Part shown: positions 3,827 to 9,464 of the stretch, one piece after another | How positions within the stretch are numbered: the first letter of the stretch is position 1 | How the letters are laid out: every line of letters begins with the position of its first letter | Origin: an uncultured Planctomycetales bacterium | GTDB lineage: Bacteria > Planctomycetota > MHYJ01 > JACPRB01 | Reading direction: 5' to 3' | DNA: 10,511 bases | NCBI GenBank assembly: GCA_964526305.1 | Contig: CAZGKV010000022.1 | Span: forward strand, 41,550-52,060 | Notes under the pieces: model-generated | Database searches by the model: none | What the model saw: the letters and a program-made list of their open reading frames with translations, nothing else | What the model was told of the DNA's origin: nothing | Program-made: the position numbers and the translations under genes

Positions 3827-3860
3827 GGTATGATTCCTCCGAAATAGGAGGAATCATGCT
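3827..3860 (+). promoter_or_regulatory. Perfect inverted repeat / RNA hairpin sequestering the Shine-Dalgarno sequence and start codon of the WD40 gene
   Basis: ATGATTCCTCC (3830-3840), a 6-nt loop GAAATA (3841-3846), then GGAGGAATCAT (3847-3857) form an 11-bp perfect stem. It can extend by U.G / G-C / G.U pairs to 3827-3860. The 3' arm contains the SD AGGAGG (3846-3851) and the A and T of the start ATG (3856-3858). A 5-codon mini-ORF (ATG ATT CCT CCG AAA TAG, 3830-3847) occupies the 5' arm. Confidence 0.6.
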
Positions 3861-4758
3861 GGTCGCGTGGATGGCTCTCTTCGTCGCTCAAGATGCCGAG
3901 AAAACTCTAACCGGCCACAGCGGAAAAGTCACCTCGGTGGCGTTCAGCTCCGACGGCAAGACCCTCGCCTCGGCGGGGGCGGATCGAACGGCCGTTCTTT
4001 GGGATGTCGGGGAGGGCAAGAAGCTGCGCTCCTTCACCGGCCACACCAAGGCGCTCACCTCCGTCGTCTTCGCTCCCGACGGGAAGTGTCTGGTGACGGC
4101 CGGCGGGGACGGTACCATCCGCATTTGGGACGTGGAATCGGGCAAGGCACTGCGAACGCTCTCGGGAAGTGCGAACTCGATCGCCGTGGCTCCGGACGGA
4201 AGGACGCTGGCGTCCGGCGGCGACGATGGAAAGCTCCGAGTCTGGGAGATCGGCACGGGGAAGTGTATCCATACGCTGGAGGCCGCGAAGCGAGGAATCT
4301 TTGCCGTAGCCTATAGCGCCGACGGTACCAAGCTCGCCTCGGCGGGGCACTGGATGGCGAGGATCTGGGATGCCGAGAAGGGAACGGAGTTGCGGCAGCT
4401 CAAGGTTCCCGCTTCCGATTCCGAGGTGGCGGTCGTCTACGGCGTCTCCTTCAGTTCCGACGGTGCCTGGATTGCCGCGGCGGGGAGCCAAGGGCTGCAC
4501 GTCTGGAAGTTGGCCGCCGAGGAAGACCCCGCGGGCGTGGAGGGCGAGTTTTCGGCCCTGGCCGTCGCGTCGAGCGGAAAGATCGTCGCGCTGGGGATGC
4601 GCAAGGATATCCGACTCATCGAGGCGGACTCGAAGTCGGTCGTTTCCACCCTCCAGGGACACAAGAGATCGGTGACCTCCCTCGCCTTCCGAGCGGACGG
4701 AACGCTGCTCGCCTCGGCGAGCGAGGATTCCACGATCAAACTGTGGACCATTAAGTAG
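3856..4758 (+). CDS. WD40-repeat beta-propeller protein (300 aa, about 7 blades)
   Basis: ATG at 3856 follows AGGAGG with 5-nt spacing and an in-frame TAG at 3844. Seven recognisable WD repeats carry GH...WD/WE signatures (LTGHSGKVTSVAFSSDGKTLASAGADRTAVLWDV; FTGHTKALTSVVFAPDGKCLVTAGGDGTIRIWDV; ...LQGHKRSVTSLAFRADGTLLASASEDSTIKLWTI). The stop is TAG at 4756-4758. Confidence 0.9.
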   Translation: MLVAWMALFVAQDAEKTLTGHSGKVTSVAFSSDGKTLASAGADRTAVLWDVGEGKKLRSFTGHTKALTSVVFAPDGKCLVTAGGDGTIRIWDVESGKALRTLSGSANSIAVAPDGRTLASGGDDGKLRVWEIGTGKCIHTLEAAKRGIFAVAYSADGTKLASAGHWMARIWDAEKGTELRQLKVPASDSEVAVVYGVSFSSDGAWIAAAGSQGLHVWKLAAEEDPAGVEGEFSALAVASSGKIVALGMRKDIRLIEADSKSVVSTLQGHKRSVTSLAFRADGTLLASASEDSTIKLWTIK

Positions 4759-4804
4759 TCCTGGCGCCGAGGATTCCCTTTCAACCTCCTAACCCCATGT
4801 GTCA

Positions 4805-7800: not shown

Positions 7801-8133
7801 CCCTCGGGAACGGCACAGTACGGGAGCGAAGGCGTCGTCGATCCCGTGACCCTGGGAACGTCGGTATCCGCCGGCGACGTAACGGCTCGATATGTGTGGC
7901 TGCGGGTTCTTTTAGACGATACCTCGAGCGCGGCCGTGAATCCGGACGCGTCGAACGTCCGGGACGTCACCGACGTTCAGGTGGGATACGGCGTGGTCCC
8001 CAGCCCGGACCCGATTCCGGCCCCGACCGGAACGCGCAACAGCGAGAAGACCTTCCATCTCGGCCGATGCGGGCTTCTGGGAATGGAAGCCCTTTTCCTC
8101 CTGGGATTCCTATGGATTCGGCGCCGCTCCTAG
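4840..8133 (+). CDS. Large secreted Kelch-repeat (beta-propeller) protein, 1097 aa, with N-terminal signal peptide and C-terminal Cys-Gly/hydrophobic/Arg-cluster sorting-signal-like tail
   Basis: GTG start at 4840 with GGGAG 8 nt upstream. The N-terminus MRCRSLGVILGGGAVVVLTLF looks like a signal peptide. Residues ~290-945 hold 13 tandem ~47-50-aa repeats with the Kelch-like consensus GHTSVAYNGYLYVIGGYDGS..L.DVQVAPINSDGTLG.WS.TT.F.T.R. A ~110-aa non-repeat domain follows. The protein ends ...TFHLGRCGLLGMEALFLLGFLWIRRRS* (stop TAG 8131-8133). Confidence 0.85.
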   Translation: MRCRSLGVILGGGAVVVLTLFRNGTPNPVLSSRGCSAPEVDRAIEKLELRGEVPPEEMRFEATKERYLFQAAFTASFSRDSAQVRVEGPDSAYPLEVSSVSSDFHPAELGAGTIRYRHREAALSALYRPTSSGVKEDIVVLSPETDLAPLLQWRLALKPGSEPRLESDGSIGIYGPHETLSGNIKIGDEKTAYLIAKAREHSPKSRLLYRFPAPVLVDAAGTKHANLARYELWRDCLVVRTEEAIRDLEYPISIDPTIVVSTTSEFNSIGNLEGMVSTAGDRVTRSPASTGRVGTWVGTTAFTTGRYGHTSVAHNGFLYVIGGYNNGTYLDNVQVAPINSNGTLGGWVVTTSLPMTIWGHTSVAWNGYLYVIGGYDGSMRRAEVQVAPINSDGTLGTWSTTTALGTARYRHTSVAYNGYLYVLGGDSGSNLNDVQVAAINADGTLGGWSATASFATVRWGHTSAAYNGYLYVIGGYDGSTYRYDVQSAPINANGTVGTWSGTTGFTTGRRAFSSVANNGFLYVIGGYQGSSPLADVQVAPINAGGAVGAWTPTTSFPSPRYSHSSVAHNGYLYVIGGFDGGYRNDIQVAPINSNGTVGSWTSTQAFTTAREGHRSVVHNGFLYVVGGSPATSSYLNDVQYSLIGVHGTVGSWSSMNSFTGTRFRHTSVAYNSYLYVIGGSDGTAKADVQVARLNEDGTVGSWSTTTALGTARYGHTSVAEKGKLYVIGGTGMSDLNDVQVAPINSDGTLGGWSSTTGFSTARYGHASAVYNGYLYVIGGFGSAYLDDVQVARINSDGSLGPWSTTTAFTTARVGHKSVVYNGYLYVIGGENGSNLGDVQFAALNADGTVGTWSTTMGYPMTSYGHAVVAQDGYLYLLGGNNSASQKDVKVAPINSEGALGCWTSINAFSSARYGHGAVSYNGFLYVVGGYDGTSYFNDVQSTTLWTPAARGYYSRQIDLGSDQPVNTILINGTSGLRGTVRLQYRLAPSGTAQYGSEGVVDPVTLGTSVSAGDVTARYVWLRVLLDDTSSAAVNPDASNVRDVTDVQVGYGVVPSPDPIPAPTGTRNSEKTFHLGRCGLLGMEALFLLGFLWIRRRS
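5716..7670 (+). repeat. Intragenic tandem array of 13 Kelch-repeat-encoding units, period ~141-150 bp (approximate bounds)
   Basis: Units share strings at the DNA level (e.g. tacaacggctatctctatgtgatcgggggata / gtgcaggtggcgccgatcaactccgatgggac recurring with small substitutions). Thirteen YV[IVL]GG cores were counted. The opposite-strand 638-aa ORF (5791..7707) is a shadow of this array. Confidence 0.8.
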
Positions 8134-9464
8134 AGCCGATCGACGTCCCCGCGGTCTTGAAGGCAGCCACGCTCTTCGCCGGATTGGCGCCGGAGGACTT
8201 GGACCGAATCGCGGCCGTCACGCAGGTGCGCCGGTTCGATGGGGACGAGGCCGTCTTTTCCGAAGGAGATCCTGCTACCTGCATGTACGTGATCGCCCAA
8301 GGGCGCGTGAGCATCGTCCGGAACGCCGCGGACGGCCAGGTCGTGAGACTGGCGATGCTCCGGATCGGGGACTTCTTCGGCGAGATGGCGATCGTGGAGT
8401 CGATGACTCGATCGGCCACGGCTCGGGCCCATCGAAAACCCGCGCTTCTCCTGGAGGTGGATCGGGGGCGCTTTCGCGAACTCCTCGGCGCGAATCCGGA
8501 CCTCTCCCTGCGCATCCTGGCTTGCGTGCTCGAGCGGCTCCGCCAGTCGAACAAGCGTGTGGTGGAAGTGGACCACGAGGCGCGGAAGTACGCCCCGACG
8601 CTTTCGGAGCGGGTCACTCGGGAATATCCGCATCCGATCGCCGTGGTCTTCCGCGAGATGGAGACGGCGGTCGACTCCTTGACCAAGCTCCAGCGGCTCT
8701 TCGAGACGATGGAGTCTTGCCTCCTCTATCTCCGGGCCGTCTGCATGGGGCTGTATCTTCGACAATCACCCGGCGCGCGGGAGTTGGATGCCGAGATCGG
8801 TTCCTCCCGCTTCGCTCCCACGCTGGGGGCTCTTCACCTCCTTGTGGGGCGCTTCCTCGATCACTTCGACAAGGGGGGTATGCCGGGGCTTCCTCAGAAG
8901 CTCCATGCGTGGTACTCGGCGAAGGAGCGGGACGCCAAGGACGTCGAGGGCATCCTGCGCGATCTCCGAAACGCCCGGAATCTTCTCAAGCACGGGTCGG
9001 AAGCCTCGCTCGACGAGCACGCGGCGGAGAAAGTTCTGGGGGAATGCGCGCCGAAGTTTCGTGACCTCCTCGAGTCGCTCTCTTTTCTACGCGACTACCC
9101 GCTCGTGTACATCCAGGGCATGGCGTACGGAGGAGGGATCTTCCGGTACACGGTGCTGAATTGCATGGGCGCGTTCCGCAGTTTTCATAGCGCGCGAATC
9201 GAAAGCGACAAGCCGTTCGAGACGGAGAAGCTCTATGTCCGGGATGGGGACGATCTTGTGCCGCTCACGCCTTGGATGGAGCTGCTCCGATGCGGGACGT
9301 GCGGGGATCGCGAGGCGGTGTTGATCCAGGTCTGGACACCGCAGGTTCTAAAGTATCTCGAATTCGCGCGCGGGCATCGTACGGAGATCAAGGAAGTGAG
9401 TCCCGCCGTGGCCAAAACCGTGACGCGATTTGTAGAAGCGGCGGAAGAAAAAGGGCGGGGCTAG
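8112..9464 (+). CDS. Cyclic-nucleotide-binding (cNMP/CAP-effector-type) domain protein with an uncharacterised ~300-aa C-terminal domain containing an R-N-x3-H (HEPN-like) motif; 450 aa
   Basis: The first ATG of the frame after the Kelch gene is at 8112 (MDSAPLLEPIDVPAVLKAATLFAGL...). It overlaps the Kelch CDS by 22 nt. TTG at 8157 is a non-overlapping alternative start. The part of the 7092..9464 ORF upstream of 8112 lies out of frame inside the Kelch gene and is rejected. Residues ~15-140 (LFAGLAPEDLDRIAAVTQVRRFDGDEAVFSEGDPATCMYVIAQGRVSIVR...IGDFFGEMAIVES..RSATARA) form a canonical cNMP-binding beta-barrel including the FGEMA(L/I) phosphate-binding-cassette-like segment. The C-terminal region is mostly helical and contains ...ILRDLRNARNLLKHGSEA... 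(R-N-x-x-x-H at 8976-8993). The stop is TAG at 9462-9464. Confidence 0.8.
   Translation: MDSAPLLEPIDVPAVLKAATLFAGLAPEDLDRIAAVTQVRRFDGDEAVFSEGDPATCMYVIAQGRVSIVRNAADGQVVRLAMLRIGDFFGEMAIVESMTRSATARAHRKPALLLEVDRGRFRELLGANPDLSLRILACVLERLRQSNKRVVEVDHEARKYAPTLSERVTREYPHPIAVVFREMETAVDSLTKLQRLFETMESCLLYLRAVCMGLYLRQSPGARELDAEIGSSRFAPTLGALHLLVGRFLDHFDKGGMPGLPQKLHAWYSAKERDAKDVEGILRDLRNARNLLKHGSEASLDEHAAEKVLGECAPKFRDLLESLSFLRDYPLVYIQGMAYGGGIFRYTVLNCMGAFRSFHSARIESDKPFETEKLYVRDGDDLVPLTPWMELLRCGTCGDREAVLIQVWTPQVLKYLEFARGHRTEIKEVSPAVAKTVTRFVEAAEEKGRG

Follow-up and report, generated by a model that had tools for sequence, protein, structure and literature searches.

Do three genes packed closely together on one strand make one system? 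This question is raised by a 10,511-nucleotide stretch of DNA from an uncultured Planctomycetales bacterium (GenBank assembly GCA_964526305.1, contig CAZGKV010000022.1, positions 41,550 to 52,060 of the forward strand), referred to here over its whole length as the window. Within it, genes for a WD40 propeller protein, a giant Kelch propeller protein and a protein with a cyclic nucleoside monophosphate (cNMP)-binding domain follow one another on the + strand. An initial annotation of the sequence had read these genes as a possible undescribed signalling or defence-like module. The trio is real and tightly packed. We consider it probable that its members are lineage-specific neighbours, and that the third gene encodes a cNMP-gated effector of the HEPN type, either an RNase or an RNA-binding protein, which in the window stands without its usual partners.

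Arrangement of the three genes

The WD40 gene (3856-4758, +; 300 aa), the Kelch gene (4840-8133, +; 1097 aa, GTG start) and the cNMP-binding gene (8112-9464, +; 450 aa, protein P0001) were recovered exactly as the initial annotation had drawn them, with an 81-bp gap between the first two, a promoter-like element and a 22-nt overlap between the last two. Two public contigs, L001 from ENA (43.7 kb) and L002 from JGI, carry the locus at essentially 100% identity, and an independent gene caller called the three genes alike on both. The domains assigned to the trio also held, as Pfam families for the WD40 propeller, the Kelch propeller and the cNMP sensor matched above their curated cut-offs.

The overlap in which the Kelch gene ends and the cNMP gene begins (8112-8133, +) follows from the use of ATG 8112 as start codon. 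This start is backed by the N-terminal alignment with a homologue, P0002, and by homologues of 448-455 aa, with conservation starting at E8; the only alternative that retains the conserved residues, ATG 8067, would give a 67-nt overlap. Judged from this arrangement, co-transcription of the Kelch and cNMP genes is likely; the overlap is no demonstration of shared function. The 81-bp gap contains a perfect extended -10 promoter-like element, TGGTATAAT (4805-4813, +), 27 nt upstream of the Kelch GTG. This is a match to the consensus only, and a two-hexamer promoter scan found no + strand site in the gap and no matching -35 hexamer. The presence of a promoter-like element of its own before the Kelch gene suggests that the WD40 gene is transcribed separately. 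Three terminator-like sites were found against 3.9 expected by chance, with none between the trio genes. A 9-bp G+C-rich hairpin followed by TTTTCC (8071-8092, +), within the 3' end of the Kelch gene and 20 nt before the cNMP start codon, is terminator-like, yet such sites are no commoner in the region than by chance.

Absence of the trio from homologous loci

According to the initial annotation, the idea of a module would fall if homologues of the three genes were never co-located in other genomes. We compared seven distinct contexts in which a homologue of the cNMP protein is encoded, at 28-47% identity (the contigs L072 and L073 share one arrangement and count once), three distinct Kelch contexts (five loci, comprising the duplicate pairs L004/L005 and L006/L007 plus L074) and 59 loci of the major vault protein (MVP) homologue that is encoded upstream of the trio. 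The window WD40 and Kelch proteins were searched with tblastn on L003 and L067-L071, and all loci were scanned with a hidden Markov model for the C-terminal domain of the cNMP protein, which we call X.

No WD40 or Kelch gene was found in the seven distinct loci of cNMP protein homologues, and no WD40, cNMP or X-domain gene in the three distinct contexts of the closest Kelch homologues. The 59 MVP loci, including that of the nearest relative, had no DoxX, Kelch or cNMP-X gene nearby, and one showed a weak WD40-like match. This nearest relative is a groundwater Planctomycetota metagenome-assembled genome (MAG) whose MVP is 89% identical to that of the window, and its MVP locus (L008) is without all three trio genes. 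Homologues were thus never co-located in the sampled loci, among which contexts of WD40 orthologues did not figure, and the comparison lends no support to the proposal of a single module. From these neighbourhoods the trio is best seen as a group of lineage-specific neighbours and not as a conserved three-gene system. The juxtaposition itself is mostly ordinary, with abundant repeat proteins standing beside a signalling protein.

A cNMP sensor joined to an unmodelled domain

The third protein, hereafter cNMP-X, had been taken for a sensor/effector. It has the corresponding layout, a cNMP domain followed by X, and is the only sensor-effector of the trio. Its CAP/PKA-type cNMP-binding domain (aa 40-126; 8229-8489, +) matched Pfam PF00027 at 7.5e-21 (74.3 bits, cut-off 27.5), and also matched CRP and PycTIR-type models. 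In this superfamily the Glu and Arg of the phosphate-binding cassette contact the cyclic nucleotide. Both are intact in the window cassette, FGEMAIVESMTRSAT (FGEMA...RSAT; aa 89-103, bases 8376-8420), which is conserved in P0002.

The X domain, the C-terminal 300 aa of the protein, had zero matches to Pfam, NCBIfam or PADLOC models, and profile searches against PDB sequences found nothing related. Hydropathy showed no transmembrane segment in cNMP-X. A word-indexed search with X returned only the protein itself and one relative, and with an 18-sequence profile it returned 10 matches dominated by receiver-domain proteins. The family emerged from an exhaustive profile search, which collected 709 representatives (clusters at 50% identity) at E<=1e-3, 104 of them at E<=1e-10. 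When 185,579 species genomes were scanned with a 2-sequence profile, no relative was confirmed; an alignment-based scan of metagenome contigs gave 57 pattern matches, none of them confirmed, and also missed the gene-bearing contig L002.

X is found at either end of proteins 280-2400 aa long, joined to a range of other domains. Fusions among 87 scanned members were to cNMP_binding (9), TPR (7-8), Pkinase (6), Methylase_S, the Type I restriction-modification specificity domain (6-10), N6_Mtase (3-5), an ORC/CDC6-like ATPase (3-5), receiver (2-3) and HEAT domains. WD40 was fused to X in 4 of 149 representatives and Kelch in none. Four proteins (P0140, P0146, P0150 and P0210) combine a Ser/Thr kinase with X, three in the order kinase-then-X and one as X-kinase-WD40.

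Two parts can be distinguished in the domain. The first is a predicted HEPN-like helical bundle (aa 150-330; 8559-9101, +) with the motifs YPxPIA, E201, (P)SLGxW and R289-N290-x3-H294-G295, the last of which (R289-N-L-L-K-H294) is encoded at 8976-8996 (+). The second is a beta-rich subdomain (aa 331-427; 9102-9392, +), with strands in the AlphaFold2 (AF2) model, that carries G353, P387, C394-x2-C397 (9291-9302, +) and G421-H422. Across 151 aligned sequences R289 is conserved in 86%, N290 in 93% and H294 in 72%, the His being displaced by 1-2 residues in some; the corresponding values are 95% for G353, 97% for P387, 86% for C394, 83% for C397 and 74% for the His of the GH motif. Other conserved positions, in window numbering, are Y172-P-x-P-I-A177, E201, (P)SLG239xW, G295, F325-L and G421-H422. 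The CxxC...GH pattern of the beta subdomain may bind zinc.

The AF2 model of X, built from 18 aligned sequences (pLDDT 90.8, pTM 0.90), begins with a helical bundle over domain residues 1-180, continues in a beta subdomain (182-277) and closes with a helix. It was used in place of a full-length cNMP-X model from 2 sequences, which was unusable (pLDDT 46.7). Foldseek searches of the X model against PDB and the viral BFVD library returned nothing at E<=0.001, so that the two-part module as a whole is without a solved counterpart. Two of the features that define HEPN domains are present in X, namely an all-alpha helical-bundle core in the predicted structure and an R-x4-6-H motif in the alignment, and the structural similarity of the model to HEPN is moderate only. 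Sub-threshold matches to PF18735 (HEPN_RiboL-PSP) were obtained for 7 of the 87 scanned members, some of which also matched HEPN_Apea or HEPN_MAE_28990, and every HEPN match that was located lay over the RNxxxH motif. The best was that of P0159 (2.2e-6; 28.2 bits, against the PF18735 gathering score of 28.4), and the others had E values of 0.004-0.24. On the combined evidence of alignment and model, X is HEPN-like: it combines an Rx4-6H signature of the catalytic type with an additional CxxC...GH beta domain, and by formal threshold it is outside every curated HEPN family.

Recurring partners of the cNMP-X family

An ABC exporter gene adjoins the cNMP-X gene in all four of the contigs that are long enough (L003:1-1293; L068:85-2628; L071:3-2360, -; L072:813-3212, -; 786-847 aa). 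Orthology is confirmed for three of the four, as the exporters of L003, L068 and L071 share 46-50% identity over their full length; the one flanking P0133, on L072, has the same domain architecture as the others. In two scanned exporters the family matches fall in two stretches about 200-250 aa apart, an arrangement suggestive of an insertion within the ATPase domain or ahead of it.

A gene for a protein of HEAT repeats and a cold-shock domain (CSD), here called HEAT-CSD, lies directly after the cNMP-X gene at three loci (L071:3722-4561; L072:4864-5766; L069:2402-2959), with a 4-nt overlap at L071 and L072 and a 10-bp gap at L069, and the proteins encoded on L069 and L071 share 43% identity. 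P0138 (802 aa) carries cNMP-binding, X, HEAT and CSD parts in one protein, and this fusion confirms cNMP-X and HEAT-CSD as functional partners. The CSD part of HEAT-CSD has further matches to models of retron effectors (PADLOC CSD_V; NCBIfam retron Se72 effector).

The loci differ in the remaining genes. At L071 a divergent ABC exporter is followed by three overlapping genes, encoding cNMP-X (P0131), HEAT-CSD and a class III cyclase with a weak PycC match (2.9e-12). The arrangement on L072/L073 has a divergent ABC exporter, cNMP-X (P0133), HEAT-CSD and then a PIN toxin-antitoxin pair. P0127 on L068 is encoded between the ABC exporter and a small cNMP protein, and P0129 on L069 beside the HEAT-CSD protein. 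On L003, from a Coriobacteriia MAG, genes for an ABC ATPase, a small cNMP-binding protein and an HD protein precede P0002 (47% identity over the C-terminal domain), and those for an RlaP nucleotidyltransferase and a transposase follow it; this small cNMP protein shares 59% identity with its counterpart on L068. The other two contexts show an APH-like fragment (L067, P0125) and a divergent FHA-trypsin protein (L070, P0130).

The HD protein on L003 (L003:1758-2819) is like the C-terminal part of CCA-adding enzymes, and with RlaP, a nucleotidyltransferase of RNA repair (L003:4166-5116), it flanks P0002, the homologue closest to the window protein. The pair represents an RNA end-healing theme, which would suit an adjacent RNase and recalls MNT-HEPN pairs.

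Across the 21 kb of L001 that surround the window gene, genes for an ABC exporter of this kind, HEAT-CSD, the small cNMP protein and a cyclase are all absent. Since these usual partners are missing, the window cNMP-X would depend on a cyclase encoded elsewhere.

Proposed mechanism and competing explanations

We propose that a cyclic nucleotide would bind the N-terminal domain of cNMP-X and act as an allosteric switch of the HEPN-like domain, and that the switched domain would cleave or bind RNA. The occurrence of X behind receiver and kinase domains, its RNA-related partners (CSD, CCA-type HD and RlaP) and the one operon shared with a cyclase fit such a switch. Several observations weigh against this proposal, or against treating the trio as mere neighbours. 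At E<=0.01 Pfam gives no HEPN match for the window cNMP-X, and all Pfam HEPN matches in the X family fall under the gathering score. The sample used for the trio was small (seven cNMP-X and three Kelch contexts), several of its contigs are 2.6-4.7 kb long, and the trio could be conserved solely among close relatives of this planctomycete, as the sample contained no such genome. The tight spacing and the WD40-X fusions (4 of 149) are also compatible with a local functional link.

In one alternative, the WD40, Kelch and cNMP-X genes would be a lineage-specific operon for a single outside-in signalling or defence module, with Kelch detecting, WD40 scaffolding and cNMP-X effecting. The shared strand, the 81-bp gap, the 22-nt overlap and the lack of any terminator-like site between the genes are in keeping with this, and relatives in which X is joined to a repeat scaffold (TPR, HEAT, or WD40 in 4 of 149) make a trans-acting repeat partner plausible. 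However, the trio, or any pair of it, is missing from every homologue locus examined, Kelch-X fusions number zero among the 149 representatives, and the PADLOC defence matches are to generic domains only. Hydropathy also places the Kelch protein outside the cytoplasm and the other two inside, and the extended -10 element in the gap points to separate WD40 transcription. We regard one such module as rather unlikely. In a second alternative, X would be a non-catalytic regulatory or ligand-binding domain, the family would consist of cNMP-dependent regulators of the adjacent ABC exporter and the window copy would be a stray regulator. In favour of this are the exporters next to cNMP-X in all four sufficiently long contigs, three of them confirmed orthologues. 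The weak match of the cNMP domain to TIGR03896, a bacteriocin-type transport-associated family (8.3e-8, under the cut-off), points the same way, non-catalytic HEPN families exist (PMC3710099), and the structural similarity of X to HEPN is moderate only. Against this, the conservation of R (86%), N (93%) and H (72%) in 151 sequences is typical of catalytic HEPN families, the fusions to restriction-modification subunits, kinases and STAND-like ATPases and the RNA-related neighbours (CSD, HD, RlaP) suit an effector better, and there is no exporter near the window gene. We regard a purely regulatory X as unlikely.

If X is an effector, cNMP-X might belong to a Pycsar-like anti-phage system with its cyclase elsewhere, and act in abortive infection as an RNase that responds to a cyclic nucleotide induced by phage. 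Its cNMP domain matches PycTIR/Pycsar effector models (4.7e-14), the relative on L071 shares an operon with the class III cyclase, itself a weak match to PycC, members of the wider X family carry Type I restriction-modification specificity and methylase domains, and two loci have a PIN toxin-antitoxin pair (L072/L073) or a transposase (L003) nearby. We nevertheless find this unlikely: no cyclase is encoded in the 21 kb that surround the window gene, the PADLOC matches go no further than the generic folds of cNMP and cyclase domains, neither of the conserved neighbours (ABC exporter and HEAT-CSD) is a Pycsar component, and the window has an even composition, no tRNA and no obvious mobile-element gene. 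The reading of cNMP-X as a ligand-gated HEPN-type effector among unrelated neighbours can also be extended. In this bolder form, which we hold to be doubtful, cNMP-X would represent an undescribed second-messenger-gated HEPN RNase family, a module under cNMP-binding, receiver or kinase control, of which the cNMP branch with its exporter and HEAT-CSD would be a new RNA-targeting defence or stress system; the window copy would have been captured next to the gene of a surface Kelch protein and coupled to it in translation, so that events at the envelope would be linked to cNMP-controlled RNA cleavage.

The Kelch and WD40 proteins

The Kelch protein matched Pfam Kelch families at 1e-73 to 1e-60 (Kelch_1, 200.9 bits against 20.1; PF24681, 247.5 against 50). 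It has 13 blades of about 50 aa each across aa ~300-940, represented by twelve exact [YF]L[YF][VL][IVL]GG motifs at 50-52 aa spacing and one degenerate copy (KLYVIGG). A hydrophobic segment at aa 5-22 (anchor or signal) and an unannotated N-domain precede the blades, and a C-domain, a hydrophobic tail at aa 1077-1093 and RRRS follow them; the two segments were the only hydrophobic ones by hydropathy. The C-terminal tail, HLGRCGLLGMEALFLLGFLWIRRRS, has a hydrophobic-plus-basic layout and a Cys-Gly, with zero NCBIfam matches at E<=0.1, and aa 1072-1097, GRCGLLGMEALFLLGFLWIRRRS (8053-8133, +), resemble Cys-containing tripartite sorting signals. The initial annotation had described an exported and probably anchored protein with a sorting signal. 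The two hydrophobic segments and the RRRS end agree with the former, and the Kelch protein is probably exported and envelope-anchored; as to the latter, none of the curated sorting-signal models of NCBIfam (PEP-CTERM, MYXO-CTERM and relatives) matched the tail. Similar tails are present in P0009 and P0042 (Cys-rich, hydrophobic, poly-Arg) and in P0015 (hydrophobic, poly-Arg).

More than 1800 Kelch homologues were found. The 120 listed are 33-56% identical across 50-90% of the query, and the sources of the homologues, where named, were Saccharibacteria, Omnitrophica, Myxococcota and Planctomycetes. The window protein is an ordinary member of the giant bacterial Kelch-repeat proteins, which are often auto-annotated as "N-acetylneuraminic acid mutarotase", although most of these are longer (1300-1900 aa, against its 1097 aa), and its tail of Cys-Gly, hydrophobic segment and RRRS is common to only a few homologues.

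The WD40 protein matched Pfam WD40 at 1.9e-59 (196 bits, cut-off 27), and its aa 17-297 gave a full-length match to the WDR5 propeller. Its length of 300 aa suits about seven blades, and it has no other domain and, by hydropathy, no strongly hydrophobic segment. The gene product is predicted to be a bare, stand-alone, cytoplasmic beta-propeller. A match to the TEP1 propeller was uninformative, being one of 56 generic WD40 matches.

The start of the WD40 gene is enclosed in a 14-bp stem-loop (3827-3860, +) identified by RNA folding, which takes in both the Shine-Dalgarno sequence (AGGAGG) and the ATG. The fold of 3810-3875 has an energy of -33.1 kcal/mol (z = -5.1), and none of 200 shuffled sequences was equally stable. 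The 5' arm of the hairpin contains a mini-ORF (open reading frame), ATG ATT CCT CCG AAA TAG (MIPPK; 3830-3847, +), whose stop codon overlaps the WD40 Shine-Dalgarno sequence. This suggests translational control of the WD40 gene alone, for which the hairpin may be a switch.

Other features of the window

The window has a G+C content of 62%. The initial annotation had placed the cluster between a transporter gene and the MVP homologue, but both lie upstream of it: the 3' end of a gene for a PotD-like ABC substrate-binding protein (1-472, +) and a full-length bacterial homologue of eukaryotic MVP (689-2908, -; Pfam MVP_shoulder 4.9e-32, Vault_3), together with a DoxX gene (3078-3512, -). Downstream of the trio is a gene for a protein of 216-221 aa with a hydrophobic N-terminus (~9689/9704-10354, +; L001:11593-12243), which is without an assigned family and had zero matches in Pfam, NCBIfam and PADLOC. 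Beyond it, L001 carries a gene for a TPR-containing Ser/Thr kinase of 899 aa and one that is sigma-70-like. ORFs at 671-3148 (+), 2905-3732 (-), 5791-7707 (-) and 9526-10422 (+) were rejected as shadow ORFs. An Rfam scan of the window gave zero matches, and a PADLOC scan of five window proteins gave matches to generic domains only.

Relatives of the MVP (50-89% identity) occur in 59 species-level genomes, mostly of Myxococcota, with some Planctomycetota and Acidobacteriota and one Clostridia MAG, and the MVP neighbourhoods compared had zero genes in common with the window. An insertion island was also considered; against it, composition is even and neither a tRNA nor an obvious mobile-element gene is present. 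The synteny of kinase and sigma-factor genes between the window region and L008 is only apparent, as the proteins share 41-43% identity and are probably paralogues. A vault-like association of MVP with a TEP1-like WD40 protein was likewise rejected, as WD40 is absent near MVP in the other 59 loci bar the one weak match.

Comparison with known systems

cNMP-X recalls the Pycsar effectors PycTIR and PycTM, in which an N-terminal CAP-type cNMP sensor precedes a C-terminal effector, and PADLOC PycTIR models match aa 31-156 of cNMP-X. However, all PADLOC matches cover aa 28-160 only, and the effector part of cNMP-X is a predicted HEPN-like bundle with a CxxC beta domain, not a TIR or transmembrane domain. 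There is also no PycC cyclase beside the window gene, and the neighbours of its relatives are the ABC exporter and HEAT-CSD. The TIGR03896 (cyc_nuc_ocin) proteins offer a different parallel, in that the relatives' cNMP-binding protein is encoded beside an ABC exporter and the cNMP domain matches weakly, but the score of 31.9 bits is far from the cut-off of 161, the architecture is another one and no exporter is near the window gene.

In its predicted effector part, cNMP-X has the logic of Csm6/Csx1 (CARF-HEPN) and RNase L/Ire1 (kinase-KEN), which join a small-molecule or kinase sensor to a HEPN domain that carries an R-x4-6-H motif; the Pkinase-then-X order of P0140, P0146 and P0150 adds to the likeness with kinase-KEN. 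It differs from them in its CAP-type sensor and its extra beta/CxxC subdomain, and no sequence relationship to the Csm6 or KEN families was detected. X also shares with bacterial HEPN families (PMC3710099) the RNxxxH motif, fusions to TPR, WD40, STAND-like ATPase and zinc-binding domains, and links to restriction-modification, and its sub-threshold matches to RiboL-PSP-HEPN (PF18735) fall exactly over the motif. Besides RiboL-PSP-HEPN, that study (Anantharaman et al. 2013) covers a HEPN family, Swt1-like in our reading, that is fused to STAND-ATPase, TPR and zinc-ribbon domains; the terms "cNMP" and "cyclic nucleotide" are absent from its text, and no cNMP-binding fusion is listed. A 2020 paper on conflict systems (PMC7159879) counts cNMP-binding domains among their nucleotide sensors. 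In the searchable literature we found no combination of cNMP-binding and HEPN domains, no paper on Pycsar together with HEPN and cyclic-nucleotide binding, and no description of X.

It is the third gene that gives the locus its significance. The X family is sizeable and unmodelled, and it has a HEPN-type catalytic signature, several sensor domains and a reproducible neighbourhood. If cyclic nucleotides do gate its HEPN domain, cNMP-X would be a new sensor-nuclease combination beside CARF-HEPN, SAVED and cNMP-TIR/TM, and its HEAT-CSD and ABC-exporter partners would indicate an undescribed system. As predicted from its sequence and modelled fold, cNMP-X is a new variant on the theme of the ligand-gated HEPN effector.

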